Assembly (NCBI GenBank): GCA_008632985.1
Contig: QPGO01000401.1
Location: forward strand, 1-32,310
Length of the DNA stretch: 32,310 bases
Direction of reading: 5' to 3'
DNA from: Psammoneis japonica
Taxonomy: Eukaryota
Shown here: one piece after another, positions 555-29,125 of the stretch
How the letters are laid out: the number at the start of each line of letters is the position of its first letter
Numbering within the stretch: position 1 is the stretch's first letter
Position numbers and translations under genes: made by a program
The notes under the pieces: generated by a model
What the model was told of the DNA's origin: nothing
Seen by the model: only the letters and a program-made list of their open reading frames with translations
The model's database searches: none

Positions 555-1758
555 CGGTGAATTGTGCTCAGCACCCATTTCAACCACACCTGACCCCTCA
601 TCTATCATGAGCTTGTTGATGCCGAACAACAACAGAACAGGCTAACAGAATGCCAAACGTTTGTTTCTCGTCACATCATTTACTTTGTAGCAGCAACAAC
701 AACAGTAAATGGGTGTGGCAGAGGAGGCAGAAGAAGGAGGCTTGTCATTGAGGCCGAGTCGATTCCAAACTGCAAGAAAGGGCAGAGGCGCCGATGTGTG
801 GGGTGGTGGTGAAGAAGCATCTCCAAAAGCGGGTTCACACAAGAGACCCCAGCAGAGGCCAAGCAACAGGGAGACAGTGGCAACAGTGACATGGAAGATG
901 ATGTGGCCAATGACCCCATGCTGATGCCCACTCATGGATGCTGTGAGAGAGCCAGGTTGGCGCAGCAGAGGTCTCTCACTGTGTGTGAGACCATGGTCAT
1001 CATGCCCACATGGGTGCTGTGAGAGCCAGGTTGGCACAGGTCTTGCTGGGTGAAGACAACAAAGGCAACTGAGTGCATGCAGTGGGTGAGTCACCACACG
1101 CTAAGATGGCCTCACAATGACAGTTTTCCAGCTCCAAAACCTGCTTCCTCACATTTGGGGCAGGAAACAGAGTTCGGAAAAGTTGACAACCCCAGCCAGA
1201 AGAGCCCACTCACAACCTGCCAAGCAGAGTTTTAGAGCTCTGGCTCAAAGCAACACAAGTGCCACTCTCTGATGACAGGCATGACTCCTGTGCTGGTTGA
1301 TGCAGGTGGCAGCAAGCAAGCGACTGGTGATTGGCCTTTCTGGCCACTGCGCAGGTTGGGACAAAAGTTGGAGAACAAGGAGCAAGATTTGGGGGACATC
1401 TTCAGAAGTGAGACTGTAAAAGAAAGTCACATGGAATTTGTGCTAAAACAGTCTGTCAATCATTGCAATTGGGGCATTTGGGAAAATGCTGGAAAGATCC
1501 TGCGTGTTTTCTTGTGTGCACAAATTGCACTGGGAAAACCCCCAAGTGCACTGACAATCAGACCGCCTTTGACAATCTCACTTCCAAAGATGCCCCCCAG
1601 ATTGGAGCTTCAGAGGCAGCAGGCAAGGAGTTGGCAAAAGAAGTGGCATTTTGTCCCAAGAAAGCCAGCGCGAGAATTTGGTTGTTGGTGTGCTGTGATG
1701 AAGCTGGAGATGTCCAAGGAGCATCTCCAAAAAATGCTCCCTCTTTTTCTTTCAGCTG
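555..1758. repeat. Dispersed repeat family A, copy 1
   Basis: Colinear similarity with 4173-5102 (cggtga.ttgtgctcagcacccatttcaac ... tttcagctgt), with indels. Contains the internal sub-repeat gctgtgagagccaggttgg. Confidence 0.85.
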
Positions 1759-2145
1759 TGGTGGCTTGCTGACCTTCTTCAGGAAAAGCCCAGGCAGACT
1801 TTGGCATGGGGAGTTTCTTGCTCTTTCCCAAGTGTGATGTTGAACCATCTGGCATGGATGGCATGGGCATCAGAGTTTTGAAAAACATGCTTGCTTGACA
1901 ACTTGATTGCCCCAGCTTCCTTGACTTGGGTCCAATGCCGTGGCTCCATCCAACGTCATTTGGATGGCTGGGAATGCCAGCATCCACATGCAAAAACAAA
2001 GTCCGCATGATTGTTTCGCAAACAGTTTGATCAAGACTTTTGTCTGCTCTGCCATGAGTGTTGTCAAAGCAAAAGACTTGCTTGTTGAAGAAGAATGCAG
2101 ACAATGCCGAAATGTTGCCTGCTTGCTTGAGGCAACATCCAGAAC

Positions 2146-3291
2146 TCAGAACTGCCTGCGCATTCTGAACACATCAGCCATTCCAACGCATGCAATGGGC
2201 TTCTTAGATTCAACATGAACCCCCAGTTTTTCTACCCCATTCGAGTCTCGCAACTTCACAGCACCAGCACTGACAGCGGGAAGAACAGGATGGACCATGC
2301 AAAAGCATGTCTGCAATTTTTGCTGCAGGAAGGAAACCCCAACTTCGACTCTAGACTGTTGCAAGTTCACAGGATCAACAACCAGGAGGAATGTGAGCTT
2401 GTCAAGAGGAGGCAAAATTGTTCCGAGTCCACGTCGATGGTGATGCACTGAGCTGTTGGGAAAGGCATCCACCCCATGAAATGCTGCAATTCCATGGCAT
2501 TTGTCATGGTGATCCTTGACAAACAAAAGGGTGCCGCTGTTGCCAGGCTCGCCAAGGTCAAGGAGGAACTTCACAATGCCACCAGGATGCCCGTCAGTGT
2601 GCACACAGGCTGAACCATTGCGGCTCGAAACGGCAGCACCGAGACCACGTCCGACAACTCGAGATTGTCGGCTCTCTCTTGGCTTCTGTGGTGAAAGGGG
2701 CGTGTGTTCTTGAATGTCTTCATTGGTGGGGGGCGAAGAAGAGACTTCAATCACAACAATGTCCTTTTCTGCTGGGAGTGGATTTTTAAACTCTGCATCA
2801 TGTGGATTCACCAAGTGCACCCCGACAACACCCAATTGGAGAATCGATTCCGGAAGTTTGATGAGTGCACAATGTTTGTCCGTTGGTGAATTTGTCGACA
2901 CCAACAGAGCGCATTGAGCAGCGCCAACGATGGTGTTCTTTGCTCCACCAAAATGGTCAAACCATGTGTGCGTTGTTTGTTTGTTGGGGTCATGCAAGTT
3001 GTGATTGTCGGCGCCAATCACGGGAACTTCACAAATTAGATTCAATGACAGAGGATCAGCAGCAAGCTGCAGATCCGTCACTGCCGCTTCGATTTGGTTG
3101 ACGGACTCAACCATCCATTGTTCAAACCATGTCAATGGCTTGTTGTGTGGAATTGTCGGCATGTTCATTGCTGTGGCAGCCAGCTGCCGTTGATGAAGAC
3201 TGCAGAAAAGAGTGATGCAGGGATCATAGAAACTTGAGGTTTTGAGGTTCTCAGAAGAGAGGCAGTGTGCGTTCTTGTACAAGAGATTCAA
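2146..3291 (-). pseudogene. Trypsin-fold (PA clan) serine-protease-like gene, mutated
   Basis: 381-codon ORF with ordered motifs IVGAAQCAL (AAHC-like, His replaced), KDIVVIEV (Asp) and GEPGNSGTLL (nucleophile Ser). No Tyr after the probable start MNMPT (~3168). Confidence 0.5.
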
Positions 3292-3549
3292 GCTGGTTAT
3301 GGAGCAAATGACTCCACGCTACAGTGTCGTGCATTGACAGAGCTGCCTTGAAGGCTTTGTTGGACAACGTCGTGGCAATGATCAGAGCGTGATGAAAGAT
3401 GGAAATTGCAACACGGCCATGCGGCGTTCTCTTCAAGTCTTGAGTCTGTGCAAGACTGTGACCTGTGAAATGCACTTGTCAGTTTTCGCACGCAAGTTCG
3501 CTTCATGGCGATTTTGTGCATCTGCACCACGTAATTTACAGCGACATGC

Positions 3550-3730
3550 ATCTTGCTGCTTTCCGACTCTCGCCTGTGACCTCCGTCCGACAAAAACACG
3601 GTGAAGCACGGGAATGCATCTGACAATGGCGGTGCCAATCATCATTGATTCTGCCATTTTTCACCATTCTCCCATGTTTCAGTGAGCTCTTGATGGCAAT
3701 GAAAGAGGGCTTTGGTGCTTGCATTGTTTC
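3550..3730. repeat. Dispersed repeat family B, copy 1
   Basis: Matches 5196-5368 (ggaatgcatctgacaatggcgg ... ctttggtgcttgcattgtttc). Confidence 0.8.
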
Positions 3731-4172
3731 TGTTGGCACCACCCATCTGCCAAGGGGGGCATCCGCTGTTTGCTGCAAAGACTTTGAACAATGGCGTCAA
3801 TGGCTGAACTGATCAAACTCAGAGGAAACCCACAAATTCAGACATGATCCAGTGTGGAATGAGATGATTCTTTCATGCTTTCAAACAATTCAAGGATTGA
3901 CTGGAGACAATGTGAAGGAAATCAACAAATGTTGTGCAAGACTGTGTGCAGAGGCCTCTGGCGCAACACTGGACCAAAAAGGAAAGTGCCATCCCAGCAA
4001 GCAGCGCAACCTGTGCTGTTGCCACCAATCTTGACAGGAATGCTCTCAATGATGGCATTTTCAAGAAGATGCCAGAGAGAAAACACTCAAAATCTCTTGC
4101 ACAGCCACCCCGTAAACCCACACGCCGGGTGGACATGGCAGTCAGATTGCCGGTGTCATTTTTCAAGTTGAT

Positions 4173-5102
4173 CGGTGAGTTGTGCTCAGCACCCATTTCA
4201 ACTGCACATCATGAGCTTGTTGATGCTGAACAACAACAGAGCAGGCCAACAGAATGCCAAACGTTTGTTTCTCATCACATCATTCACTTTGCAGCAACAA
4301 CAGCAATTGGGTGTGGCAGAGGAGGCAGAAGGAGGAGGCTTGTCATTGAGGCCAAGTCTTCCAAGCTGCATGGGATCGCGGCTAAAAGAAGCATTTCCAA
4401 AAGCGTTGCACAAGAGGCCCCAGAAGAGGTCAAGGAACAGGGAGACAGTGGCAACAGTGACACAGAAGATGATGTGGCCAATGACGACCATGATGATGCC
4501 CACTCATGGATGCTGTGAGAGCCAGGTTGGTGCAGGTCTTCTTGCTGGGGTGAGACCATGATGATGCCCAAATGGGTGCTGTGAGAGCCAGGTTGGCACA
4601 GGTCTTGCTGAGTGAAGACAACAAAGACTGCTGAGTGCCTGCAGTTGGTGAGTCACCACATGCCAAGATGGCCTGACAATGACAGTTTCCCAGCTCCAAA
4701 AACTCACTTGTGGCAGGAGCCAGAATTCAGAAAAGTTGACAACCCCAGCCATTGAGGTGCCCGCTCACCTGCCAAGCAGAGTTTGAGAGCTCTTTTTCAA
4801 AGCAACAGAAATGCCACTCTCTGTTGACAGACACAGCTTCTGTGCTGGTCATTGCAGGCAGTGACAAGCAAGTGACTGGTGATTGGCATTTCTGGCTGCT
4901 GCATGCAGGTTGGAACATAAAGTTGGAGAACAAGGAAGCAAGATTGGAGCTTCAAAGGCACCAGCAGGCAAAGAGTTTGCAAAAGAAGTGGCACCTTGTT
5001 CCCAGAAAGCCAGCTTGGGAATTTGGTTGTTGGTGTGTTGTGAAGAAGCCAGGGATGTCCAAGGGGCATTTCCAAAACAAATGCACCCTTTTTTTCAGCT
5101 GT
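4173..5102. repeat. Dispersed repeat family A, copy 2 (more mutated at its 5' end)
   Basis: Alignment by eye to 555-1758. Confidence 0.85.
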
Positions 5103-5195
5103 CAGTTTTCACACACAAAATGTGCTGCCTCCATTTGCGTTGTTGCAATTTTGCAGTGCCAGCATCATGTGCAGCAGAAATTTGCAGCATTGAGT

Positions 5196-5368
5196 CTTGC
5201 TGCTTTTGAACTGCCGCCTCCAACATCCAACAAAAACATGGCAAAGCACAGGAATGCATCTGACAATGGCGGCACCAATTGTCATTGATTTTGCCACTTT
5301 CATCACTCTCTCATGTTTCAGTGAGCTCCCAATGGCAATGAGACAGAGCTTTGGTGCTTGCATTGTTT
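5196..5368. repeat. Dispersed repeat family B, copy 2
   Basis: Alignment by eye to 3550-3730. Confidence 0.8.
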
Positions 5369-7621
5369 CCTTTGGCTGCACTTTCACTCACATTTTTTTC
5401 TCTGTCTGCACCATTTTGACATTCCAGCAGGCATGTCACACAGTGTGTTTGCTTTTGTAGAGTGCCGTTGCAGCTCAAGTTGTCTTTCATCAACCAAAGC
5501 TCATGAAAGTGGTTCAAACATTGAACATTTGATGGTGTTGCAGTGTGGACATTCAAGGTGATGGGAGGGTCACAAATGGCTTGCACTCAAGAGAAATTGA
5601 GCTCACAACATTTGTCTCTCTCATGAGTTGGATTTTGAACCAGGTGTTGCAGCCCATTGAGTGAAATGTTGCATGACAGACATGCCAGAAGGCAGAGTTG
5701 AATGTGAGCAATGAAGAGATTGAATTTGTGGTGCACAGAAGGGCAACATCAACTTCTGTCTGTTGGCAAAGGGAGTGACTTGAATGGAGTGACTTGCTCT
5801 CAACTTGTGCCAATGCTGGCACAAAGCAAAGAAGAGAGCAGAAGCTTGGACACAATTTCAAAGGAACTGCATGTGAGAATGAAGGCAGCATTGTTGAATG
5901 ATCAACCAGAATGCTCGCCATTGACAGATGAATGACATCCACTCAGCCATTGCTGTGCTTCATCCTGCAACTCCTTGTTGTCAAACAAAGTGTTGGCTTG
6001 GGCAAAGCGCCGGGCATTCTAAATGACTGAGTTGATTGTTCAAGCAATGAGACAGCTGCAGCAAATCGACAAGATGCCAGTGTCAACAAATTGGCTTTTG
6101 ATGGCTGCACACCTTTCCAAGAAAAGCACAAGCATGGCAGCACAGCACCTGTTCCAACAAGAAGTGCTGTTGGCACTGATGCTTGCTGTGGCATGCCTGG
6201 CTCAACAGATGACCAATCCTCCACCAGCAGCAAAAAAGATGTCAAAGCAAATGGGGGCTGGGTGCCATGATGTGAAAGCCAATTGCAAGAAGGCTGGTGA
6301 CCAGGAGAGTGGGAGTCAATCATTTGAACTTTGGAAAAGGAAGAAACAGAGTGACCACATCATCAAGTTCTGCCAACACTCAAAAGAAGGACTCAGAGTT
6401 GGTGCTGAGTCAAACAGGGGTTGCAAAGTTGAGGATCTGGCAACAGGGACATTTTTTATTCACCCAGCTAGAGTGTGGAGCAGCGCAACTCTTGAGAGTC
6501 AATGCAATGCACCCAAACAACCAGGCATCTGCAAGATGTGTTTGCCCGTGCACCAAGGGCCCGTCTGAGCATGTTTCTGTGTGGATTTTCCAAAAACTGG
6601 GCCAGAAGAGCCCATGAGTGAGCTGAACAAAGCACTGGCCAACAATCCAGTCATGTGGGAAAAAGCAAAAAAGAACTGCCCTTGTGGTTGTGTGTTAGAG
6701 TTTTTTGACTTTGTTTTGTGGCAAGGAAGCATCAGTTGGTGGAGAGCCAAGCCACAGTTTTGAGTGCCACAAGCAAACAAAAGATGCTTCTTGTGTTGCT
6801 TGGAACTGACCAAATGACTTGCTGTGTTTGGACAGCATCATTTCAGCTTCAGCATTTGTGTGGGTTCTGCATGCCACAACAGCAACTTGTTGAGGCTCAA
6901 AACCTGTCCAAGTGCTGTTGTGAAACTTTGGCATGCTTGTTCAACTTGATTTGTTGTGGTTCAATCAGTTGCAAGCACAAAACTTTTGTGCACATTCCAT
7001 GAGAACTTTCCCGACATCTGCCATGACACATGCTTTTTGCAAGTTGTTGAAACAATGACAACACACAACAGCTCAAAACTTCAAGCTTTTGCAAAAACTT
7101 GTTGCCCCATCATGACTGATCTCCTCACCTTGTCCGCAAAACAAACATGGCATCCACAAGAGCACTGGAACAAATTGCCCACGTGCATCCCTGGCACATC
7201 ATCTGTCTGCATTCTCTGACAGTCCATGAGGTGACTGGGTGTGCAAAGTGTGTGTGCATTGGCTGACACACAGACTCATGACAGAGAGCAAAATGACACC
7301 GCAGACTGCGCAGGTGGAGTGAGCAGGAAAGTTAAAACAGACAGTTTTGACCACAGGCACCAGTGCAAAAAAATCTGCATGAAGAAACAAAACATCTGTA
7401 AAGATGAAGAAGATCTTGAAAACATTGAACTCTGCAAAAATCCTCCAAGCAAGTCAAAAATGCTGTTTCAACCATGGCACATTTTTGACACGGCAACCAC
7501 ACCTTGCAGAGATCCAATTGTTGAGGCATCAACTTTGTTGAACAAACAATGCACAGTTGTGTTCACATTTTTAGCTGTTTGTTTGTTTTTGGTGCTGTGG
7601 AGGTTGCTTTGTCATTGACAA

Positions 7622-9137
7622 AATGATGGCATGCAACAAATTTTCAACTTGTCCAAACCCTTGTTGGGGACAAAATGATGATCTGGGGATGCCGTTGCAT
7701 TGCAAATCATTCACACACTGCAGAGCATTGTGATCACTGTAGACATTGTGTCTTCTTGACATCAGTTTGCTCCTGAAGTCAGTCACAAGAATGCAATGAG
7801 ACGGCAAACATCACACCATTTTATGAACATTTCAGTGACCCAACAAATGAAGGGTCATTTTCACTTTGAAAGGCTCTGCTGTTTGACAAACATTTAGCCT
7901 CATGGCTTGCCAGCAATGATTGCACATTTCAATCATCACACATTGTGATGAAGCCACTGAAATGGATGTTTGAACACCACAGTGTTCACAAGGAGGCTCA
8001 TCATTGAGTCTTCCAAGCTGCATCATCAATCAATCCATGCGCTCACACCTGTTGCACCCTTTCCACTCTCTTTGTCATCCAGCCACCAACCAGCAGTCCA
8101 ATGGCACAATGTCCAGTTGGTGCAGTCCAGCTGCAAGGCAACCGATGCTTGGTTGAACAGAATCACCAACACTGCACCCAATGCTTGATCCAACAAAAAA
8201 AATCACCAACACTGCACCCCCAACACATGATGCATGATGCCAATGCTGTCTCCAGCTCTGTTTCTTCCCTGCTGAAAAACCAACCCCACAGCCAACATTG
8301 GAGCCAATCTTAACTTGCAATGGAGAGTGCAGCCAGACATTGCAGATGTGCTGGTGCATTGTTCAGGTGTGCATCACGACCATTGTCATGATGGCATCAT
8401 GCAAGAAATTTTCAACTTGTCCAAACCCTTGTTGGGGACAAAATGATGATCTGTTGATGCCGTTGCATTGCAAATCATTCACACACTGCAGAGCATTGTG
8501 ATCACTGTGGACATTGTGTCTTCTTGACATCAGCTCACTCCCAAAGTCAGTCACAATGCAATGACGGCAAACATCACACCATTTTGTGAACACCTCAGTG
8601 ACCCAAATGAAGGGTCATTTTTACTTTGAAAGGCTCTGCTGTTTGACAAACATTTGGCCTTGTGGCTTGCCAGCAATGGCTGCACATTTCACTCATCACA
8701 CTTTGTGATGACGTCACTGAAATTGACATTTGAGCACCATCATCATGTTCACAAGGAGGCTCATCATTGAGTCTTCCAAGCTGCATCATCAATCAATCCA
8801 TGCACTCACACACCTGTTGCACCCTTTCCACTCTCTTTGTCATCCAGCCACCAACCAGCGGTCCAATGACACAATGTCCAGTTGGTGCGGTCCAACCGCA
8901 AGGCAACCAATGCTTGATCCAACAGAATTGCCAACACTGCAACCAATGCTTGATCCAACAAAATCACCAACACTGCACCCCAACACATGATGCATGATGC
9001 CAATGCTGTCTCTAGCTCTGTTTCTCCCCAGCTGAAAAATCAATTGGAGCCCATCTTGACCAGCAATGGAGAGTGCGACCAGACATTGCAGACTGCACTG
9101 GTGCATTGTTCAGGTGTGCATCATGACCGTTGTCATG
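7622..9137. repeat. Tandem duplication of a ~770-bp unit, including a decayed PT-repeat coding stretch
   Basis: aaattttcaacttgtccaaacccttgttggggacaaaatgatgatctg recurs at ~7637 and ~8406, and the units are colinear. The + strand reads QPMLDPTELPTLQPMLDPTKSPTLHP. Confidence 0.85.
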
Positions 9138-11453
9138 AGACAGACCTTCTTGGCATCATGTCTTCATGCTCTGACACATGTGCTCCTGCAGGCTGAAAGA
9201 CAAAAGAGCAATGCCGGATGAATGTTGGACTGAGGGATGCTGGAGGGATGCTGAACAATGCTCTCTGGCTTGTTGCTGGACATCACCTGGTTGACTCATC
9301 TTTCTGCTGTCAGCTTTGAAATGTCTTGGGTTTGGATGCAACCACCATGTGGTTGAACAGTGTTGCTGACTTTGAAATGAGGCAACACACTTGAGGGAGT
9401 TTGTGTGTTGGATTTTTGACACTCAAGCCTCTTTCAGTGCATTCCCACCCAAGATGCTGATGGCTGATGATGGGGTGGGTGCTGCCTCTCAGCATGACCT
9501 GACCAATCCACTGCACTGCTGTTTCAGAGTGGCCTTGGTGCTCAACAAGGCAGGGCACAGTGCTGCACTTTTTCAAGATGCAGCCTGGCAAGACTCATGG
9601 CTGGCTTGACAAATGTGATGGGTCAGCTGCCCCATGTGCAGAGCATGGTGCAAAGCCAGGGGTGGTTGACTCTCATTGCCTTCAGAGGAGACAACAAGGA
9701 AAACTGCCATGTGCAGCTCACATGAAAGGACAAGTCAGTTGGTGGTGCCAGGACTGGCAATTGTGACATCATCAAGCATGCTGATGTCAAAACAATCTGG
9801 TCCTTTCTTGCCCTCCTCCAGGGTTGGATCAACAGGAATGCAGATGGTTTGTTGAGTGGAGCAAGTGCACATGTGCAGCACTTGCACATTTGTGCAACAC
9901 CTCAAGGAAAAACAGTGTAAAGAAAAAGGCTGAGACATGGTCCTGGTGAGGAATGTGGGTGGCACAAATGGAAGGGCTCATCAAGAATGGCATCATGATG
10001 GATTTGTTGAGTGCTGGCCTCATCCCTTGGATCCCAAAAGTTGTCTGCTTGCACTGCTGCTGTCATCTCATTGGAGCTGTGGCTGTGCTTCCACACAACA
10101 TTGCCAGATGGGTGGCACATGGTCATGCTGCTGGAAGCAGGGCAGAAGCTCTCATTGAGCACCAAAGCAAAAAACTGCAAGAAGGCATCTGCTCTTGCTC
10201 TGCAAACCATCATGCACTCAGGTCAAAGCTGTGCATGTGCACCTTCAAGATGCTGCAGACAGAAGGTGATGCCACCTGAGGCTGCACATGACCCACTGTG
10301 AGATGAGCCAAAGAGCCTTGAGGATGAAGTGGGCCAGGGCAAGGTTGCCATTGAAAGTGCCACATTGCTCCTTTGGCTTTGATGACACAGGACAGTCAAG
10401 TTGTCTGGAAAATGACCTGCGCCATTCTCACAACTTGAGCTCATGAATTGTTGAAGGAGCAGCACCAAAGGCTGCCAGCATGGAAAAGATCAAGAAGGCT
10501 TTGTGGAGGTCTCAGGCAGGCAGTTGAAACCCAGATGAGAAAGTGGGCATGGTCATTGCCAAAGTGCTCACCTCCCAGCTGGGCATGGATTGGTTGTTCC
10601 TGCCCACCACATTTGTCATTTAAAGCCACACCCAACTCCCATTGTGACACACCAGTGCACACCTCCTGCTGGCAGGAGCTGCTTCACTCACTCCCTGCTT
10701 TTCATTTGCATGTGCATTGACTTGCTGCAGGGGGCAAGCTGACATGAAAAATGTGTCACGAAAAGTTGGGCTCTTGCACCACATGACTGTGGAAGAAAAG
10801 AGCTGGGTGTCATGGGTCTTGGGCAGATTTGCCATTTGGTCATCCAGCCCTGCAAAACTGTCATGACTGAGCTGGATCCCAGACAGAGTTTGCTCACCTT
10901 GAGGTCATTGAACAGCCCAGGAGATTTGCTGAAGAACCCACTTGATTCTGGACTGGCAGTGTGGACTTGGGGGGCACTTGAAACAACATTTTTTGAGATG
11001 GAAGGAGAAGGACAAGTCAAATGGAAAAGTTCAATGGAAAAGAAAAAGGAATTGGCCACACAACCTGTGGAAGAAACAACGCAAGAATGATTAAAGTCAA
11101 TGTTCAATGCACAGTGGAAACAATTGCTTTCGCCCCCCTTGCTTTCCCCAGCAGACGTGACGCAGGTTGCGTGTGCAATCAGCACGGCCATGCTGTCATT
11201 GTCGATGAAGGAAATGCAGAAAGGCTGTTTGGTGCCCCAGGTGCCAAAGTTCTGAAATTGATCAAGTCGTTGGATGAAAATGGTTTAAAAATGCCAGGTT
11301 CGGGAGTTGGGCAAAACACAATCTAGAGCTGGTCGCACCGGCGCAGGCTTTCAAGCTTTTCGCCACTCATGCTTGTCATCAGGACTCACTTAATTATGCA
11401 CATGAAAAAGATAACACCTCCATTGAAACAGAAAATTCTCACAGCAGAGTCCT

Positions 11454-12465
11454 CTAGATCTTGCCACTGATTGTCAATTCCTCGACATGCGTCTTGACGT
11501 CGGCGGGAACATCGTTCCCATGCAACTGCAAAAGAATTTTTTGGACTGATTGAAGAGAGATGTTGAATTCCAGCATGCTCAAGAATGGCACTGAGATGAA
11601 TTTGATCCAGTTCGGGCATGTCATCAATTGCTCAACCCCGTGCTCATGTGCCCTTGCCTCTGCATTGGTTGTGAGGCACACAATTTCAGCTGCCACCCAA
11701 CAGTTACATTCCGGTGGATCGCACAGTGGCGGCAAAATAACTTCCAAATCACCAACAACAAGGTTGTGTCTCCCCATGAGATCAAAGAGAGGTTCTAGAA
11801 TCTCTTTGAAAGAAGTGAATGGCGGATGCAACAGATCGGGCAGGAACAGATGATGTGTCGTTTTCATGTCCACCTCCCTGTTGCGGAAGGGTGACAGCAA
11901 GTCCTCCACAAACTCCTTTGGGGATCCGCTGTGATGACTGTGTTCTGCTGCGTGCACAAAAACCTGAAACAGGCGATGGCATGCAGGACGCTCAGCCGCA
12001 AGCTCGGCAAACGCGCGCATCCATGGTCTAGCCCCTTTCTTGAGTTTACAATCGCCACATCCACGTCTGTAGAACCAACAGTTGGCACTGGCAGAAAGCT
12101 CTTTTGAAACAAGGAGGACCTCCTCCGCCGATCATCCAGCTGCACACAACCAATCATGTGGAACTTTGACTTGAACCTCACACATGTCCTGGTTTGTAGC
12201 AGACGCAACAGCACGTGCCAGCTTCTTTGCGGAGTCGACGTCCATTGATTCCACGAGCCTCCCCCCTGTGAGCGATGGCAACAATTCTTCAATCCTTGAA
12301 GTGGGAATCGACTTTAGCAGATCGACATCTTCCATCGATGCAACATGGTTTTTGCACAGGCTCACGATTTCCGGGACCCGGTCCTCCAGAAGCAAAAAGT
12401 CTGCTGTGCGCAGCAGCGCCACTGCCTCATCCATGTCTGATGCAACAAGCCTTGAGCGGACAAAT
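11454..12465 (-). pseudogene. BTB/POZ-like gene, 3' part (split by the copia insertion)
   Basis: In frame with the 5' part once the element and one TSD are removed (...LVEEKS|FVRSRLVASDMDEAVALLRTADFLLLEDRV). One internal TGA at 12132-12134 (plausibly CGA->TGA), after which the same frame continues to the stop at 11454. Confidence 0.7.
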
Positions 12466-12470
12466 GACTT

Positions 12471-12746
12471 TGACAGAAATTGAAGGCAAATGGCAAGAAT
12501 TCAAACAATGACTCCTTGCTGCTGTCTAAACAGCAGATGAGTCTCCGCTCAGAGACCGTCACAGGAGCCGAAAGACGTGTAAGTCGGTATAATCGGGCTA
12601 CTGTCATTATTCTTGTGAGCCTTGTGGCTCGAAAGCAAACTACATCGCGTGCGAACGCGCGGAACTAAAGCACACAAAACTGTGTGCGGTAAACTAAACA
12701 GCGCGCGATACTTCGCGCGCATCCAAATCCTGTTCAAATCCTGTCA
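12471..12746 (-). repeat. 3' LTR
   Basis: tgacagaaat...cctgtca, direct repeat of 19297-19572 with 12 substitutions by manual alignment. Confidence 0.97.
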
Positions 12747-12752
12747 CTCCCC
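12747..12752 (-). other. Polypurine tract
   Basis: GGGGAG on the minus strand, immediately before the 3' LTR. Confidence 0.7.
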
Positions 12753-15700
12753 AGTTTGCTTGAGGAGCCACAGAAACAGATTCGACTTCGGATGGGATGA
12801 AGTTCCAGAACATGAGGGGCGGAGAAGGTCCCAGATTTGGGAGCAACCCCAATGCTTGCTGAGAATGTCAGCAGGATTGCGGGAGCCCTCGATGAAGTGG
12901 AACTCAAGGTAACCAGAGGCAATTGCCTCACGCACACGGTGGAACGACAGTGCGGTGTGTCGCTTGTGTAACTTGGAGTGCGGGATGGTGGCACTGTCTA
13001 CAACCGACTTGTTGTCACCGAACATGTAACTGACATTACGGATCGGGACGCCAAGGCAGCGCAGGGTGATGCGCAGGTCGATAATCTGCTCGACACAATT
13101 CCTTGCGGCAACAAATTCAGATCCGTAGGTTGCAGTCTCCACGGTGGCTTGTTTCTTGGAGAACCAATCAGCCGGGAATTTGTTGAGGAAGTGGAGCATT
13201 CCCATGACAGAGCGTCCGGTGAGCATGCAATGGTGCAAGTTTGCATCGACGTAGTGGGTGGCAGTGACGAACTTGCCAAGGGGCGGTGGAGCGTCCTTCG
13301 GGATCATCTCTTCTGCTTCACCAAACACGGAATGCATCCATTCATAGGCCGGAGCAGGGAGATCCGAACAGTCGGGCTCTTCCGTACGAACGCGGAGAGC
13401 ACCGTGTCGCATCTTGGAGAGGCACCCACAGACGCGTTTGGCACGATCCAAGTGGCCTTGACGGGGCGCAGCTCGGAAGCTAGAGAGTGACATGACAGCC
13501 GTGGCAATGTCAATTCGACCAAGGGACACTGCCCATTGGAGTGAACCAACAAGAGACTGGAACTTGTGAATGCCATCGGGTCCCAGTAGTTCGGAAGTGT
13601 CCAGTTTGGGGTGGTCACCCTTCTCTAGAGGTGACAGGGCGTTGGTGGCAGGTTTCTCCCCAAACAATCGGGCGTAGCTGTCGACCATGCGCTCGATGTA
13701 CTTGCGCGGAGACAGGCACAAGGTTCCGTCGGGGTCCCGGGAAAAGTCGCAACCCAGATGGAACTCAATGGGTCCCGTACCCTTGAGCTTGAACTTGTGC
13801 TTTTCCGTGAGAGTTCGAGAAAGATTGAGGGTCCTTCATGGCAATGGCGAGGTCATCCACATAAACGCCAATGTATTCATAGTGGTCGCCGTTCCTGCGC
13901 ATCCAAATGTCGGGTTCGGCGCGGCAGGGGAAGAAGCCTTCAGCTCGCAGGCAGTCGGCGAAGCGCTCGTGCCAGCGGAGACCGGAGCTGCGAAGTCCAT
14001 ACAGTGCCTTGTGGATGACAAGGATGTGTCCTCGAGTTTGCCAAATTCGGGTCCAGCTACAATGTAAAGCTTCTCCTTGGTGGTGGCTTCAAGGTAGGCA
14101 TTGCCAATGTCGGTGGCCCATGTCTCCAGCTCGTTGAGTTCGGCCAGGAAAATCATCAGCCGAAGGCCACGGAGGGAGACTACTCCGGAGTAAACACTGT
14201 CGATGGGTACATCCGTGAGGTGCCCGTCGGCTACGAGTCGTGCCTTGTGGCGACCGTCGTGTTTCACGTCGACACCAGGTGCACTCGGATCTTCTTGTGT
14301 CCCGCAGGAGGAGTGGAAGACTTGAAGGGCCCGCAGTCATGGAAGACTTCGTATTCGTCGAGTTGGTCCATCTCGAGATTAGTTGCGTCTCCCCACTTGC
14401 GGTTGCCGTTGCGTTCGTCTAGTGACATGGCGTGTTTGTAGTTCCGGGGAACTTCGCACCCGTACTTGTAGCGAGGTGCAGTGCGGAAGGAGCGAAGCTT
14501 GGCTTGGTTGGCCATGCGAAATAGCTTCTTTTGGCGCCTCGCGATAGTGCGGAACCGCTTCCAGCCATCCGTGTCGAGGAGTCCGTTCTCTCGTGCATAG
14601 ATGGCACAGGTGACGGGGTCGTCCTTGGCGATGATGGCAAGAGGCTCGGACGTGATCTCCCCACTTTCCCATTCAAGCATGATGTTGTAGCTTGAGCCTT
14701 TCCAGGTTGGGTCGTGAGGCTTCAGAGGTCCTTCGTGTGATACGATGCGTCGAAATTTCCAAATGGTGGTGTCTTCGTCTTCTTGCTCAATGTGATTCAT
14801 GATGTCATTGTAAGCAAGGACTTCCTCGTATTCGTCATTGTTGACAGAGCAGACGAACTTAGTGAGCTCGGGATTGCCGTTCACTTTCCATTCGTGGTCT
14901 TCGACGGCCTTGACGATGCGAGCTCTGTGGCGTTGTCCATCCTCTTGTGGCTGCATGAGGAAGGTACGTCCAATGATGTCTTGCGGATCGAAAACTGGCA
15001 TCTTGGGTGTCCTGATCTCCCCATCAGGAGAATCGACGGGGTTGTCGTCATGGCGAGATTTGATGATGGGTTCAGGTGGCTCCCCATCAGGAGGATCAAG
15101 ACGCAGGTTTCGAACGGCAGGATCGGGGGTAGCGGAGCGAACGTTGGACCGGTGGAGGATCTTTTGAGTCTCGTCAGATAGGATCTTGAAGGTCATCTGG
15201 TGGCCGACGTGCTCAGCAATGCCAACAAAGCGTCCACGCAACTCACGGGATTCGGACGGCCAATCGGAGTCATCGAGGTGGAAGTACACTGGTTCCCACC
15301 AGTGAAAGCGAAGCAAGTGGGCTGATGTCCGGGGTGGATCCAGTGAGAGTCTCGAGGGGCGTGCGCCAGTGGAGATGTGGGGACGCTGTGTGGTTGAGTG
15401 TGAAGCACACGTGCATGAGCGCCAGGAGCCATGTGTGGGCGGGCGAACCAAAACGGTCCATGACAGTGTTCGCCATGCGCTTCACGGTCTGGTGTCGACG
15501 TTCGGCAAAGTTTTGGTGTTGCTGGTGAGGCTCACTTTGCCAGCTGGAGATGAAGAGGGCGCGCAGGATCCCGAGCACTTTGTTGCTGATCTCAACTTGA
15601 GCACGGTCGCTAATGAGTTTGGATGGTGCACCACGTTCACGGATCTGATCCTCGAGTGTGTTGACAAACTCTTTGTCCGTCTCAGTGCCGTAGACGTCAG

Positions 15701-18358
15701 TGACGGTAGACTCGGTGCCAACAAACAGTTGGGCGCTGGTGCAACCAGAGTCGACGGCCGGGGTGTCGGCACAAACGGTGTCAGTGGCGACAGGCTCGTT
15801 GCGGCGGTGCACATTAAGGGCGGGGTTGGGTGATTTGCAGGCCTTGCGAAGGTGTGTACCGGCGGGCATGCGGGCGCACTGCGTGGTGCAGTCAAAAGTA
15901 CGACGGACCGCATCGGCAGGTAGGAAGCCAAAGCAAGGCCGAAGAGACTCGAAGGGGGGGTCCTTGGGCTGTACAGTGCGCTCCGGAGGTGGAACGTCAT
16001 CGCCCTTGGGGTCAATCGCATGCAGATGACACTCGTAGAACACGTCGTCGTTCGGAATGAGGTGATCATCGAGGGCGGACGCGTGATCGGCAGACAAGGA
16101 AGCGGACAAGATGGTCTCGTTGACAACGACACGGTGACGGCAGTTGCCGCATTCGTCAAATGGGTTGGCAGTGGGATCGTCCTGCAGGTCAGAGATCGCG
16201 TCGCACCACTGGTCGTCGTCAGTGACAGAGTGATCGAGGACGGAAGGGTCCCATGTGTCATCACCGGTGAGGATGACATGGGGCAGGGTGTCCCATTCGG
16301 CGTCAGTGTAAGGGCGCATGGCAACATAAGGCAGGCCAGCCTTGATGTCAATGGGGATGACACAGCCATCAGGAGTGGCAATACGTTGCAAGCCATTGGG
16401 CACCTTGACAGAGCGATCGTTGACATCCTGTTTGTGCCATTCGAGCTGGCCGCAGGAATGGATGGTCTTGCCCTTTCCCATGCATGCGCACTGATGGAGG
16501 ATGGCGATGACGGGACCACGCTGGGTCTCAATGACGGCACCAGCGGTGACAATGGGGATGTCCACCAATTGATGATCGTCAATGCCCTGAACGTCGACTT
16601 GGCGAGAGGTGCGTGCGATGACGCGAACGTCGTCGCCAGCAATGCCGCCGTTGGCCCCACGATCGACCAGAGCGCCAGTGCGTGTGGAGTGATGAGCAGA
16701 GGCAGAGTAAATGACATTGTGGTTGTTAACACGGCGGCAAGTGCGGCCGTTAAGTTCCATGTTATCTGCAGAAGCTGGCGGGGTAGAGGAAGCGGCGGAT
16801 GGCCCCGGTCGACTGGCATTGGGGGCTTGGTTAGGAGACAACAGACGTTGCAGATCACCGGGTGGCAGTGGCTTGCGCTTGGTGAGGTGCGCCAGGATGG
16901 GATTATCCGAAGTGGCGTCCACATGTGCAGCGGAGTCACCATGGTCAGCAGGAGTCGTGTTGGACAAGTTGACATCACCGTCACTCCCAAGGTGTTGGTC
17001 GTGAAGGTTGGCCGTAACAGACTCATGGCAGTTGCTGGCTCGCGGGTTGCGGGGAGGCGGACGAGAGTGCTCAAGGATGATCGCCTTGGAGGAATCGGGC
17101 AACGAATCCCAGAGCCGTTGGTGGTCGGGAGGGAGACGTCTCCATTGGACACCGGTGAGGCTGGGACCACGGGTGTGGGCAGCATTGGCTTGAAGGACGT
17201 CAACGTCACTGTCAATGTCGCAGAACACATCGTCGGACGGTTCCTCGGAGTAGACGTCGTGGGCGCACGTGGCACGTCGGGGAGCTCGAGGTGTCGTCTT
17301 GGGTTGAAACGTGCTGTCGCACTGAGCTGCCGCGGAGAGGAGCAAGCCACAGCATTGATCGCATGTGAGGCTCTTGCCACTCTGCGTACGATGCTGATCA
17401 GCTTGGTTCTTGACAGCACGGAGTTCCTCGACAGGGTGCACGGCATTCTCGAGCATGACGCGCTTCTGTCCTTCAGAGAAGTGGTCGCTGGCGGGGATGA
17501 GTGCCTCGCACTTGCGCAACTGATCTTGCCAATGAAGGATGAACCCGTGGGTCGGACCTTTCCAAGTGCCATCACCAAGACGTGCGGTGGTGAGGTGCGT
17601 GAGCAGGGTGGAGGACTCGATGGATGCACGGGTGGAGGCAAGCGCGCATTCAGACAAGGAGCGGCAGACGGTCTGTGCGTCAGAGACCCCACATTTTCGC
17701 GAATGAGAGCCTTGCCCTTGTCGGTGAGAAGGATGCGTTCGAAGACGGCGAACATGTGCTTTTGCTGTTCAGCAAAGAGCAGTTTGTCTTCGGGGCTGGT
17801 CGGTTTGTACGACGAGTCTAGAATGCACTCGACGTCTTGGGCACGGGCTTGTGCCACAAGTGAGGTGTGCCAAGTGTGCCACTGCTTGTCGGATTTGAGA
17901 GCCGTGAAAGCGGTGGGATCACGCTTGATGCCTCGCTTGAAGTCTCGCACCGGGTCGCGTGCCTTGGTCGGGTTGGTGACATGTGGAGGTGCAAGGGGTG
18001 AGCTGCCGATGGACACAGAGGACATGCAGTCCGGGCTGAGGCGGCAGGCAAGGAACTCGTCATGCGTGAACAAAGAGGAGTCGTTGGCAACGTCAAGACC
18101 TTTGTGTGCTTTGACAATGTACAGACTAGCCAGTGCTGCTAACATGTTCTTATAACCACGAGGCAAAGGGATTACATCAGTGCCGTTGTCGTACACAAGC
18201 GAGTCGATTTGGGACGGTATGAACGTGAATGGTTCCTGATGCGAGTCCGTGCCGTCTTGGGCCAAAGCCAAACGAAGAGGACTCCCAGCACCTTGGGCAA
18301 GCACGGTTCCAACAACGTGCTCGAAACCATCGATTTGTTGCTGACGAGTGAGAACCAT
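12747..18358 (-). pseudogene. Gag-Pol polyprotein of the copia element (frameshifted; many Tyr->Cys/His)
   Basis: Gag DFKRGIKRD...QARAQDV; protease LVDRGANGG (~16650); integrase VATDT..D / LISDRAQVE / QNFAERR (~15490-15800); RT KARLVADGH, TDIGNAYLEA, GVYVDDL (~13850); RNase H YVDAN, TYGSEFVAA, GDNKSV, NPADILSKHWG. Single-base frameshifts near 17680, 15310, 14270, 14030, 13820 and 12820. Confidence 0.93.
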
Positions 18359-19279
18359 GGCAGACAAAAGTGGTGTCAGGACAATCAATTCTGATTGGGA
18401 AGCGAAGGTGGACTTGAAACTCGGGTGAGAATGGACTTGACTTGAAATGGACTTGACTTGAAATCTTGAACCATCTTAAAATCAGAAGTCGCCGGGCTTT
18501 GCTATCCCGTTCGTTGTCAAGTGCTAAACTTCCTATCCGGTCCGTAGAGTTGTGCCGGCACGTCCGAACCCGCAGCTGGTGGCGCTTTGGGTTGCTTGCG
18601 AGCGGAGTGGCGGGTTGTAAACCCCTGCAGGTAAGCTGACTAGAGGTGGACAAGACCCCCGAACCGTTCTCATTTTATGTCGGTTGGATTTCCCGATCAG
18701 GCTGGCCAGTTGACGCAGGCGTTAGGCGCTGTGGACGAACGAACAAACGCGGGAAAAACACCCTCGCCCCAACGCAGGCTGCAATCACGGCTACTTGCTC
18801 TCACAGTCGTCCTCGTGGACCTAGTGGAACTGTAGAGCACCAGCAGTCCGGGGTAGATCAGGTACAATGGACTCGGTGTGCTTGTAGAGTGGCAGCAAAA
18901 CCGTAATCCGAAGAGTGGGTGCAAGTTCTTGGCCGTGAAGACATGTGTGTGCATGTGTCTTCAGCGACGAAGGTCCTTGAATATGTAGGGTTCTTGACCG
19001 TTAACCGATGAATGGGGTGTGTCAAGGGATGAGGATCAAGGATAGACTTGGACATGACCGTTGAATGTATGTCTTCAGCGATCGAAGGTAGCACAATCAA
19101 TCCAGATGTTCAGCGGTAAGGAGACTTGACGGTGACGTTAAATTCCTGCCGATGCCTGGCATTGAACGCGCGTAGACTTGCCGATGTATGTAGAACATAT
19201 ACGGAGGTCCACGCAGAATTGAAATAGCGTCGTCGGTAAATCAACGACGACGATGGCGGTTGCTCAATGGGTTGACAAT

Positions 19280-19296
19280 GAGCAAGACTGTTAATC
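19280..19296 (-). other. Primer-binding site, probably complementary to the anticodon arm of tRNA-Asn
   Basis: The minus strand after the 5' LTR reads GATTAACAGTCTTGCTC. Its complement GA-CTGTTAA-TC is a GTT anticodon loop. There is no TGG (CCA complement). Confidence 0.55.
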
Positions 19297-19572
19297 TGAC
19301 AGAAATTGAAGGCAAATGGCAAGAATTCAAACAACAACTCCTTACTGCTGTCTAAATAGCAGATGAGTCTCCGCTCAGAGACCGTTGCAGGAGCCGAAAG
19401 ACGTGTAAGTCGGTGTGATCGGGCTACTGTTATCATTCTTGTGAGCCTTGTGGCTCGAAAGCAAACTACATCGCGCGCGAACGCGCGGAACTAAAGCACA
19501 CAAAACTGTGTGCGGTAAACTAAACAGCGCGCGACACTTCGCGCGCATCCAAATCCTGTTCAAATCCTGTCA
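19297..19572 (-). repeat. 5' LTR
   Basis: Direct repeat of 12471-12746, followed by the TSD GACTT. Confidence 0.97.
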
Positions 19573-19937
19573 GACTTCTCTTCCACAAGAGACAGCAGCA
19601 CATTAAAAGCGTCAATGCTGCATCCTTGGGGCAGCATGATGTGGCTGCGGTCAGCGCAGTTGTCTCTGTCTCCAATGTTGGTTGAGATCTTGCGGTCGAG
19701 AAAAGGAATCCTCTGGCACACTTCATGGCTCACTGCAAATTTCCGTCTTTCACCACTTGAATCTTCGACCTTGAAGGCATGGAAGGTGTCGTCTCCACGA
19801 AATCGCTTCTGAGGCGACTGAGCCACACCTTCGCTGCCATCCATAGACCGTTTCTGAGGTGCTGGTGGTTCTCCCCGCTTTGGAGGTGCTGTGCCTTGGG
19901 ACTGGCGACCCTGACTGCTCATTCTGGATTCTTTCAA
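19573..19937 (-). pseudogene. BTB/POZ-like gene, 5' part
   Basis: MKESRM...KFAVSHEVCQRIPFLDRKISTNIGDR...IMLPQGCSIDAFNVLLSLV, a BTB/SKP1-like pattern. It joins 12465 in frame. Confidence 0.7.
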
Positions 19938-20039
19938 GGCGCGGCTAAAAGACGAAGGTTAAGCGTCTTTGCGACAATGCAGTGAACCTCTTGTTTGTGC
20001 CTTTCTTCACACAATCTTACAACTTACAACGCCAACATT

Positions 20040-20522
20040 TAAGCACCGGCTAAATGCGCTCGTCGAAACCCGGTTTTGTGCTCATTCATGCGCTGAAACT
20101 GGCTACGTGCATTCTGTGTAGAAACAGCACTGATGGGTGACGTCACAGCCTCCCTCCAACCCTGCGCGCACTGTCTGCGCGCTGCCGCGAGCTTCACAAT
20201 CGTGACTGAGATCCCACGCGACATTCTTGAGATCTGCATGTTTGAACGACTGAACAGCAAGCACTGTCACTTGCTTGAGCAGGTGATAGCTGTAAATGCA
20301 TGCAACAGTGAGTTTTATGATATGACTGTCACTTCTTGTCTCTAGAGAGGGCTAATTACTTCTGTTGCAGTTGCAAGCTCATCACGAGTACGTTGCAACG
20401 TTTAGGTGTGACGCCACGTAGAATCCTGGTATGTTTCTACGCAGTAGCGCATTTTTGCGCATTTGGCGCAAAATGAGACCCAAAAACTCAAAAATGCGCA
20501 CTGCGCATTTAGCCGGTCCTTA
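20040..20522. mobile_element. Non-autonomous hAT-type element (MITE-like, 483 bp)
   Basis: 20-bp TIRs taagcaccggctaaatgcgc / gcgcatttagccggtcctta (19/20 match), 8-bp TSD CCAACATT (20032-20039 and 20523-20530), subterminal gcgcattt/aaatgcgc motifs, no transposase. Confidence 0.88.
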
Positions 20523-20888
20523 CCAACATTCCTTGCGCTTCGACAGAGTGCTGAAGTTGAAATTGCCCCCTGCGCGGCGCGACTTGGCTTCAATTTCTCT
20601 CACGCGCGCACAGGCGCGAGCATGCGTTGAATTTTTAATTCTAATTAATCCAGTACTGAAGAAGTAGAAAAGGAGACTTATGTTTATGGATGATTACGGT
20701 ATCTATCAATATCGTGCAATTAATTTTTATTGCCTGACTATTGCCCTCGCAAAATCGCTCCCACAATCTCCATCAGTACAAAGAATCTCTGAAATCATCA
20801 CCATGCATCAGATGCGACATCACACATCACGCTTCAATCACTTTGAACTTCTCTCATAAACTCCAAAGGAACGAAAGGCAACAACACG

Positions 20889-22796: not shown

Positions 22797-23352
22797 GTTA
22801 CTATACAGAAAAAGTCAGGGCTGCAAGAGGAGTTGGCGGATGTTCTTTTCCAAATATAGTTTCTCCCTTGTTGGCATCGAGTGTCCTCGGTCCTCTCCAC
22901 AAAGCCTTTCTCGCAGTTGACTCCTGCTCTTGTTTCCTTCTTTTCGGTTTCTTCTAAAGAGCGCAATTTTGCGCACGGAAAAACGAACAAGATAGAGCTA
23001 AGTCACATGAATTACCATTAAGCAGTGCATAATCATGTGAAAGGCAGTGAACTTGTCGCTCTAGACTCTACAATACTCTATGGTGGCTTAGAAGTAAGTG
23101 TCCCGGGATGATCCCATGTCTGGGGGGTCGCGTCCGTCAGTTGACCGTACGACTCTTCTGTCCTTCGTACGAGAGGTGTCATGCCCCTCGTCCCTCTGAA
23201 AAAAAAACGAGAAACGAAAACGGCCGCAACAGGCAATGACGAACGCACATTCTTGCACATTGGGTGTTTCTCTATCTCGACTCTCTGTGTCTCTCTCTCC
23301 CTCTGCTTGAAACCCGTTCATCTTACGCTATTCTGATTCTGCTTAGGCTGCG

Positions 23353-24667: not shown

Positions 24668-24840
24668 AACGCAGTTGTCAGGAAAGAGAGAGAGAGAGAT
24701 GCGTTCCGGTAATGATTCTGGAACAAGATATCTGCGAGCTAGAGACTATTCATACCGCGCTAGTAAATGGCAACAATTGTGTCTGTAAGTTGCGAAGGAC
24801 ATTCACAGTTTTCATAAAAAAAAAGCACGTCATACTTTTG

Positions 24841-25808: not shown

Positions 25809-26099
25809 GAAATACTCTCTCTAGGGCCCTCTAGCTACATGAGAAACAACCCCAGTCGCATCAATGTTAGATGTCAACACCGGCAGCTGTGGCATGTGGC
25901 ACGCATTGGCGTTGTGGCGAGTTCAGAGTTGCTGCTGGCTGCTGATGATGTGCGGATGCATTTTCCAGTTTAGGCTAATGGACTAGCCAAAATTGTGGGA
26001 CGACGCGACGCACGACAACGACTCTTCTTTGAAAGAGCCATGCAAAGAACAAGTGCGGCAGTGTGGTGTTTCATTGGCGGGAATGTCTGGCACAGAAAA

Positions 26100-29000: not shown

Positions 29001-29125
29001 GGCATGTGATGGCACTTCTTTGGGTTTGAATGTGATGCGCTGTGGGCCCCTTCCTTTTTCCTGCCCACTGTGATGTCGGTGTTGGGGTGCATGATGGCAC
29101 GCACATTCTCTGTGGATCTTGACTG
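26100..29125 (+). mobile_element. Decayed tyrosine-recombinase (DIRS/Ngaro-like) retrotransposon: ORF1 and start of RT
   Basis: ORF1-like motifs CLGTIGGGATFCLK...CKVKKH, APTIWGAL and FKDHLSVASECTKFLVTNSGF. The RT N-terminus at ~28850-29125 reads KLQKVQRHGCV...SLTDCFWV.K...DIRMACDGT.LGLN..LWAP.F.LPTV.SVLG...DLD. Family assignment is by motif recall; ends are approximate. Confidence 0.65.
26252..26343 (+). repeat. Perfect 46-bp tandem duplication
   Basis: tcatctgatgcacctcatttttgtgtcatctggacagagggcactg x2. Confidence 0.95.

Follow-up and report, generated by a model that had tools for sequence, protein, structure and literature searches.

Evidence for region-confined TpA hypermutation in chromosomal DNA of Psammoneis japonica

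The window analysed here is a 32,310-nt stretch of DNA from Psammoneis japonica (assembly GCA_008632985.1, contig QPGO01000401.1, positions 1 to 32,310 of the forward strand). It contains gene-free domains from which the dinucleotide TpA has almost disappeared in favour of TpG and CpA, and a Ty1/copia long terminal repeat (LTR) retrotransposon whose two LTRs have acquired the same change since integration. We regard it as probable that these features record a region-confined, TpA-specific transition hypermutation of chromosomal DNA in silent gene-free domains, of the same kind as that reported in Bigelowiella natans (Mettrop et al., bioRxiv 10.64898/2026.01.13.699255, 14 April 2026). The lineage differs from that of Bigelowiella and is probably a diatom, the named relatives of the copia element being diatom sequences; no database entry closely matches the host genes. 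All statistics describe this one window, and rate contrasts are contrasts within it rather than genome-wide ones; its TpA-normal gene zone (1–750 and 20250–26000) serves as the internal control.

Depleted domains and the direction of change

The first depleted domain spans positions 751–11250. It holds 35 TpA steps, compared with 705 expected from base composition and 364 expected from the density in the gene zone (Poisson P = 3e-109); an earlier reading of the window (hereafter the original prediction) had counted about 40 by eye in roughly 1–11.4 kb and called TpA almost absent there, which is accurate. Densities in this domain are 3.3 TpA, 13 CpG and 228 TG+CA per kb, and the observed/expected ratio (o/e) of TpA lies at 0.01–0.10 in each 1-kb bin from 1001 to 11000. 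A second domain, absent from the list in the original prediction, extends from 26001 to 29500 (TpA 3.1/kb, CpG 14.9/kb). It is followed at 29501–32310 by a low-TpA zone with CpG nearer normal (8.9 and 39.9/kb, respectively). Across the window, TpA o/e falls below 0.2 in 37 of the 64 500-bp bins, and the domain edges near 750 and 26000 are sharp at 250-bp resolution. The gene zones (1–750, TpA-normal by its TpA and CpG counts, and 19573–26000) have a TpA o/e of 0.4–0.6 and a CpG o/e of about 1. Genes are thus normal for both dinucleotides and excluded from the depleted domains, as expected of the confined process that had been proposed.

Scarcity of CpG in the same region, also part of the original prediction, holds as to level (13/kb in 751–11250 against 55.5/kb in genes, with the deepest loss at 4–11 kb) but not as to extent: CpG loss covers a smaller area than TpA loss. 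At 2–4 kb, 26.0–26.25 kb and 30–31.5 kb, CpG is near normal, yet TpA is gone.

The composition of the first domain identifies the type of change. The sum of pyrimidine–purine (YpR) steps amounts to 244.3/kb in 751–11250 and 245.2/kb in genes; relative to genes, TA is lower by 31.4/kb and CG by 42.5/kb, and TG+CA is higher by 73.1/kb. The remaining 12 dinucleotides shift much less (o/e within 0.19), and ApA has an o/e of 1.17 in depleted DNA and 1.18 in genes. With the YpR total constant and the other dinucleotides near-stable, transitions at TA and CG alone account for the composition, and transversions must have been few in the old zone too. TG (113.3/kb) and CA (114.7/kb) are equally frequent in the old depleted zone, which indicates that both strands are struck alike and agrees with the strand symmetry originally claimed. 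The same direction is apparent in an internal duplicate revealed by self-alignment: the copy at 4169–4945 (plus strand), inside the depleted domain, reads CA or TG wherever its twin at 551–1389, near the gene, keeps TA.

Relatives of the copia element (12471–19572, minus strand) allow the direction to be polarised. An alignment with 40 relatives yields 12 columns with Tyr in at least 60% of the sequences, and the window has Tyr in 3 of them, Cys in 7 and His in 2. With the exception of Lys (3/6), every other residue class with six or more columns is conserved in two thirds of them or better, and most classes in over 80%. When the window sequence was left out of the profile, 23 Tyr columns resulted, at which the window carries Tyr 6 times, Cys 8, His 5 and another residue 4 times; Cys or His at 13/23 columns compares with 66/1461 pooled over 75 related metagenome loci (Fisher P = 8e-12). 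At the DNA level we used nine relatives of 64–71% nucleotide identity, taking each in turn as the focal sequence for control. Where at least 60% of the relatives have TA, the window reads TG or CA at 13 of 38 sites, compared with 18/306 in the controls (P = 2e-6); conversely, conserved TG/CA sites have gained TA at 0/139 positions in the window and at 88/1246 in the controls (P = 1e-4). The change of TpA to TpG or CpA that was originally proposed is therefore borne out by YpR balance, Tyr columns, DNA polarisation and the internal duplicate alike. The eight copia motifs from which it had been deduced lie not in the 1–11.4 kb zone but at 12837–16496 (minus strand), inside the LTR element; relatives carry Tyr at the quoted positions rather than Cys or His, the outcome that would have refuted the original prediction.

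Timing, rate, sequence context and reach

The element at 12471–19572 has 276-bp direct LTRs with TG...CA ends (3′ LTR at 12471–12746, 5′ LTR at 19297–19572, both on the minus strand) and is bordered by a 5-bp target-site duplication, GACTT (12466–12470 on the left, 19573–19577 on the right). Its interior (12747–19296, minus strand) comprises gag, protease, integrase, reverse transcriptase (RT) and RNase H, with the integrase upstream of the RT and an RVT_2 domain, and is classified as diatom CoDi-like from RVT_2 matches, translations and relatives. The arrangement of LTRs, target-site duplication and RVT_2 is that of CoDi-like Ty1/copia elements of diatoms; the window copy differs in being frameshifted and depleted of Tyr. 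Named relatives are diatom proteins (Nitzschia inconspicua, Phaeodactylum tricornutum). The polyprotein is 50–66% identical to named diatom and metagenome-contig copies, the closest database proteins reaching 65–66%, and a scan of viral contigs found no relative of the element. Frameshifts, and Cys or His in place of Tyr at 13 of 23 conserved Tyr columns, mark the copy as dead. Its TpA depletion is only moderate (o/e 0.29) and its CpG level normal (o/e 0.94).

The LTR pair provides a clock. The two copies differ at 12 positions, all of them transitions in YpR steps, with no transversion, and 11 of the 12 fall at ancestral TpA. Seven differences are TA in one copy against TG or CA in the other; two further sites read TG in one copy and CA in the other (four changes) and are best explained as ancestral TA resolved differently per copy; the last is a CpG change. 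Per nucleotide, 11/64 positions at ancestral TpA have changed, compared with 1/488 elsewhere (odds ratio 101, P = 2e-10). Counted by site and copy, 11 of 32 TpA have changed. CpG, by contrast, is preserved in both LTRs at 20 of 21 sites, which shows that TpA is lost far more rapidly here than CpG decays. Because LTRs are identical at insertion and these have since diverged almost only at TpA, the process acts on chromosomal DNA after integration, as the original prediction of a process acting on DNA had supposed; this timing also excludes RNA or complementary DNA (cDNA) editing as the cause of the LTR changes. An equilibrium estimate from the old zone, where (TG+CA)/TA is 228/3.3, gives about 69. 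The TpA process thus runs at roughly 70–100 times the rate of other sites.

Flanking bases set the rate of change, RTAY being the fastest context and YTAR the slowest. With genes as the reference, survival in the depleted zones was scored for NTAN tetramers; it is lowest for ATAT and ATAC (both 0), GTAC (0.03), ATAG (0.04) and ATAA (0.08), followed by GTAA and CTAC (0.10 each), CTAG (0.16), CTAA (0.24) and TTAA (0.33). YTAR is over-represented among surviving TpA (P = 3e-5). The young LTR changes obey the same rule as the old zones: the changed sites are ATAC, GTAT, TTAT (twice), ATAG, ATAA and TTAC, and the seven TpA retained in both LTRs are CTAA (three), GTAA (two) and CTAC (two). The fast context accounts for 1 of 22 surviving TpA in the two copia flanks, compared with 93/248 in genes, and for 1 of 25 in the low-TpA zone at 29501–32310.

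The left copia flank (11251–12470) is partly depleted, with 11.5 TpA and 41 CpG per kb, and the right flank (19573–20250) shows a gradient, with TpA counts per 250 bp of 3, 3, 6 and then 13. Depletion appears to spread about 0.5–0.7 kb from the copia element into unique DNA. An open reading frame (ORF) at 11457–12131 (minus strand) lies in the left flank.

For a sequence check, contigs of two runs, here called X1 and X2, were aligned to the window and word depth was recorded per stretch. X1, a public run, contains 76% of the sampled words of 801–10800 and is possibly the source sample of the assembly, which makes it only partly independent. Its contigs match the depleted zone at a word depth of 56–62, with 11 differences over 8983–11472 and 10 over 5817–7667. 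In total, letters change from window to X1 as A>G 161, T>C 128, C>T 110 and G>A 117, with 9–19 of each transversion, and from window to X2 as C>T 25, G>A 26, A>G 16 and T>C 9; these totals are not separable by context and are not used as evidence. No RNA run covering 801–10800 is listed, which has no bearing on expression. The assembly has one N, at 30073.

Across 6004–11339, summed X1 word depth is 49–101, compared with 59 over the flanking gene. Depth this close to that of a gene implies that the old depleted DNA is mostly single-copy at a likeness of at least 80%, a threshold past which ancient repeats could have diverged. The qualifier "repeat-targeted" in the original prediction is therefore not demonstrated; in this stretch no homology to repeats or transposable elements (TEs) was found either. 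In X2, a contig spans 11449–12465 of the left flank, and 12465 is joined directly to 19573, with flanks about 3% different from the window (34/1022 and 11/427 letters). An allele or strain without the copia insertion must accordingly exist.

On the copia element, X1 places 14,937 contigs with 636 variable places; summed depth there reaches 70,000–120,000, more than a thousandfold the value in the flanks, which is not a copy number and is read solely as a sign of a highly repeated sequence. Other copies of the family differ from the window copy by single-base indels at 15317, 12815, 14031 and 17683, and at 15317 nearly all depth is without one base. Some frameshifts are thus private to this copy or rare in the family.

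Origin of the depleted DNA, neighbouring genes and occurrence elsewhere

About 17 kb of depleted DNA other than the copia element gave no homology in Pfam, tblastn and purine/pyrimidine-pattern BLAST searches. Pfam, applied to 219 stop-to-stop ORFs of at least 70 aa, matched only RVT_2 within the copia element and the host RING and acyltransferase sequences, and a relaxed Pfam search of eight ORFs gave nothing useful. A tblastn search with 63 long copia polyproteins found no match outside 12.4–19.6 kb. Transition-blind BLAST, in which sequences are reduced to purines and pyrimidines, gave no signal over a reversed-sequence null against the copia element and 77 related metagenome loci.

The longest open frame in the depleted zone lies at 2149–3318 (minus strand; 390 aa); frames of such length are to be expected where TAA and TAG stops are gone. 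A weak language-model lead suggested a chymotrypsin/3C-like protease for this frame (score 0.94, 103/256 shared features). We rejected it, as there was no sequence match in the PDB, no Pfam support and a mean AlphaFold predicted local distance difference test (pLDDT) score of 34.9. The depleted zone also holds a tandem duplication of about 760 bp (7623–8391 and 8388–9138), 88% identical by BLAST and 92.5% identical over ungapped columns of a global alignment. Between the two copies there are 43 transitions, 26 of them within YpR steps common to both, and 13 transversions.

A further compositional feature of the depleted domains is a raised frequency of CC+GG, which reaches 112/kb in 751–11250 together with 26001–29500, compared with 89/kb in a 3.3-kb non-coding TpA-normal control; TC+GA is down by only 9/kb. 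The excess may be a weaker second mutational signal or a trait of the original sequence. TpC>CpC was tried as a second signature and rejected: the old duplicates are saturated and uninformative, and the composition relative to the 3.3-kb control is unbalanced.

Among the neighbouring genes, an intact host ORF at 20847–22793 (plus strand; 649 aa from stop to stop) ends in a C-terminal RING-H2 finger. It contains a direct repeat (21419–21714 and 21716–22014, 88% identical), and, apart from matches to the RING finger, the protein database yielded no relatives of the 635-aa protein. The best database match of the host acyltransferase exon is a transcript of 64% identity.

Depletion of TpA is rare among relatives of the copia element. 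TpA o/e is 0.44–0.89 in 75 of the 77 related metagenome loci. One of the other two, contig L031, has a TpA o/e of 0.02 over its entire 2447 bp, and at its 14 Tyr columns it carries no Tyr, Cys at 2, His at 6 and other residues at 6 (P = 6e-8); its copia family differs from that of the window element. The other, L008, has a TpA o/e of 0.27 and an internal boundary. CpG o/e is 0.13–0.25 with normal TpA in nine loci (L018, L020, L025, L010, L058, L044, L043, L064 and L029). CpG decay is thus common in these copia loci, many of which are CpG-depleted, and TpA loss, seen in 2 of 77, is rare. Among about 260 database proteins scored, the replacement of Tyr by Cys or His recurs in P0007 (Tyr 1, Cys 10, His 3 of 17 columns), P0061 and P0119.

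Mechanism, known systems and significance

We propose that, within silent gene-free domains, a TpA step would be converted to TpG or CpA through either strand about equally, and that this would continue until TpA is nearly extinct. Older neighbouring DNA would by now be saturated, and the copia element would have been mutated after its integration, with about 0.5 kb of flanking unique DNA also reached. Ordinary, much slower CpG decay would be layered on top. The window itself shows the spectrum and direction of the change, its timing after integration, its confinement to domains and its dependence on context. As for the chemical step, adenine deamination seems most likely by analogy with Bigelowiella: guided by chromatin, an enzyme would deaminate adenine on either strand of TpA to hypoxanthine, which is read as G. 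A function in genome defence is suggested by analogy as well.

Several points weigh against this interpretation, beginning with the dependence of both the chemistry and the function on analogy. In the copia interior, the TpA that remain show an almost normal mix of contexts (fast context in 27/78, compared with 93/248 in genes), and the 5′ region of the element (18501–19296) retains 40 TpA/kb, so part of the interior Tyr loss may predate insertion or obey other rules. P0007, which is 52% identical to the window protein and comes from another assembly, shares its Cys/His outcome at 5 of 6 columns; some interior changes may thus be inherited rather than independent in-place events. A single-strand 5′-TAY rule, expected of an ADAT/TadA-like enzyme, was rejected as a predictor of the product: at half-favourable sites a hand tally gave 8 fits and 8 misfits. 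Finally, the sole run containing the stretch, X1, possibly derives from the source sample, and its library type is unrecorded.

The DNA adenine deaminase and the modified thymine named among the candidates in the original prediction both stand, with deamination leading and modified thymine as its main rival. In the latter scheme, a TET/JBP-type dioxygenase would oxidise T at TpA in silenced DNA to 5-hydroxymethyluracil (5hmU) or 5-formyluracil (5fU), and mispairing with G or faulty repair would produce T>C. 5hmU pairs mainly with A, which counts against this route, and we consider it unlikely, although the dependence on flanks at the level of the site, with apparently random strand, is as compatible with recognition of a duplex step as with a deaminase. 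The raised CC+GG could also stem from a weaker side reaction, TpC>CpC, but that signal is unbalanced (TC+GA −9/kb, CC+GG +23/kb). Dinoflagellates offer a precedent, with 5hmU that is made by TET/JBP enzymes, enriched in repeats, silences TEs and is placed preferentially on T in TA and TC (PMC11572971, PMC6723414, as far as the text available from these sources goes); in the accessible portions of the literature searched, by contrast, nothing linked 5hmU to diatoms as a genomic feature, and the Bigelowiella preprint favours adenine deamination (bioRxiv 10.64898/2026.01.13.699255). It is improbable that RNA- or cDNA-level editing by an ADAR/ADAT-like enzyme during retrotransposition turned Tyr into Cys or His before integration, a scheme that leaves the rest of the window in need of another cause. 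Its attraction lies in the copia interior, where conserved Tyr is lost at 17/23 columns compared with 11/32 TpA site-copies in the LTRs, where the contexts of surviving TpA are not shifted, and where P0007 shares most outcomes. Along the element, TG and CA outcomes show weak strand clustering (23 events in 8 runs, 12.5 expected; one-sided P = 0.046, an exploratory value), and in the old zones the clustering of runs does not differ (z = −0.78 and +0.6) from that in genes (−1.2). However, the LTRs, identical at integration, have diverged almost only at TpA and on both strands, and the same signature marks the unique flanks and more than 10 kb at mostly single-copy depth without detected retroelement homology. 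ApA is untouched and TG equals CA; ADAR tolerates a 5′ A, so the intact ApA counts against it.

The remaining alternatives fare worse still. That the depleted blocks are foreign or selected DNA that always avoided TA and CG is very improbable: although no homology was found for 751–11250 and 26001–32310, the YpR balance is exact, the duplicate has CA or TG where its twin keeps TA, LTR divergence is concentrated at TpA, TpA follows a gradient into the copia flanks, conserved Tyr codons have been rewritten, and the o/e of 0.01–0.05 lies below all 77 loci except L031. We give hardly any credence to the idea that modified DNA led sequencing, base calling or assembly astray, notwithstanding the uncertain provenance of X1. 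Its contigs, at a k-mer depth of about 56–62, agree with the assembly across the depleted zone; a strand-specific miscall would give mixed calls rather than clean TG and CA; and the signature also occurs in a metagenome contig, in proteins of other assemblies and, as the preprint text indicates, in Illumina data from Bigelowiella (bioRxiv 10.64898/2026.01.13.699255). Error-prone patch repair by a polymerase of the pol-eta type, a third candidate in the original prediction, is just as hard to credit. TpA does match its WA motif (W being A or T; WA>WG), but unchanged ApA, 12 LTR changes without a transversion and the preserved YpR total all speak against it.

The original prediction called the process undescribed. 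A process of the same kind has in fact been reported: TpA-only A:T>G:C hypermutation arising in integrated viral DNA of B. natans. Mutation-accumulation lines yielded 302 nuclear single-nucleotide mutations, 231 of which lay in two stretches of integrated viral DNA: a silent single-copy 186-kb insertion of a nucleocytoplasmic large DNA virus (NCLDV) and a virophage insertion of 25 kb. Of the 231, 230 were A>G or T>C, all 230 on TpA, at about 1000 times background and in some lines only; the signature was seen with Illumina data, and an ADAT2-like DNA adenine deaminase was proposed, not proven (all from the available text of bioRxiv 10.64898/2026.01.13.699255). Our literature search found no further report of TpA hypermutation.

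Judged from the text of that preprint, the two systems share A:T>G:C transitions confined to TpA, a TpG or CpA product depending on strand, restriction to regions, rates orders of magnitude over background, long-term TpA depletion with enrichment of CpA+TpG in clusters, and single-copy DNA as a possible target. The differences are equally plain. Bigelowiella targets are viral insertions, whereas those in the window are an LTR retrotransposon, its flanks and DNA without detected homology, in another lineage. Depletion in the window is near-complete (o/e 0.01–0.05), compared with a Rho of 0.45 for the Bigelowiella NCLDV region. The Bigelowiella data are de novo events in cultured lines, and ours are a fixed sequence read alone. 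The words diatom, CpG, flanking and retrotransposon are absent from the preprint text, although its Table S2 may contain information on flanking bases relevant to the context rule.

Fungal repeat-induced point mutation (RIP) resembles the process in that dinucleotide-context transitions riddle silent or mobile DNA and spare genes. However, RIP changes C:G to T:A, mostly at CpA, and creates TpA; the process in the window changes A:T to G:C and destroys it. RIP also needs duplication, whereas the old depleted DNA in the window mostly shows single-copy depth at a likeness of at least 80%. In diatoms, the DNMT4 enzymes are relatives of fungal RID, their function being given as unknown in the accessible text of PMC9998398. 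Deamination of 5-methylcytosine (5mC) likewise yields TpG and CpA from a self-complementary YpR step in methylated repeats, and it forms the second layer in the window, but it cannot alter TpA, and in the LTRs almost all CpG sites are intact where a third of the TpA site-copies have changed. The original prediction was right that neither RIP nor 5mC decay explains a loss of TpA in the A:T>G:C direction. Editing by APOBEC3 or ADAR also produces hypermutated mobile elements with a neighbour-base preference, which for ADAR is a 5′ U (bioRxiv 10.64898/2026.01.13.699255, in its available text). Their substrates are cDNA or RNA that has yet to integrate, and their marks fall on a single strand, in contrast to the window, where change is post-integration, equal on both strands and present in DNA that is not a retroelement.

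On a wider view, which we advance only tentatively and which is more doubtful than not, this would be an old defence system widespread in algae of the stramenopile–alveolate–Rhizaria (SAR) group (Rhizaria, stramenopiles). It would be guided by chromatin rather than repetition, spread over a few hundred bases and be able to erase TpA fully, with the Tyr codons and TAA and TAG stops that contain it. It would follow a duplex RTAY > YTAR rule with random strand, which a single-strand ADAT/TadA-like enzyme does not predict, so that the enzyme might be either a thymine-modifying activity or an adenine deaminase of a new kind acting on double-stranded DNA.

Compared with the Bigelowiella report, the window adds an LTR-pair clock, near-total extinction of TpA, a graded flanking-base rule, separation from CpG decay, collateral mutation of flanks and environmental counterparts. 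The flanking-base rule is a constraint that any candidate enzyme must reproduce, and TpA o/e set against TG+CA o/e at constant YpR offers a screen for genomes. In depleted regions Tyr codons disappear, as do two of the three stops, so that spurious long ORFs arise and annotation misses homology to TEs and viruses. If our interpretation is true, an A:T>G:C mutational defence, opposite in direction to RIP and 5mC decay, would not be peculiar to one chlorarachniophyte but would be at work in environmental populations and a second major lineage of algae as well.

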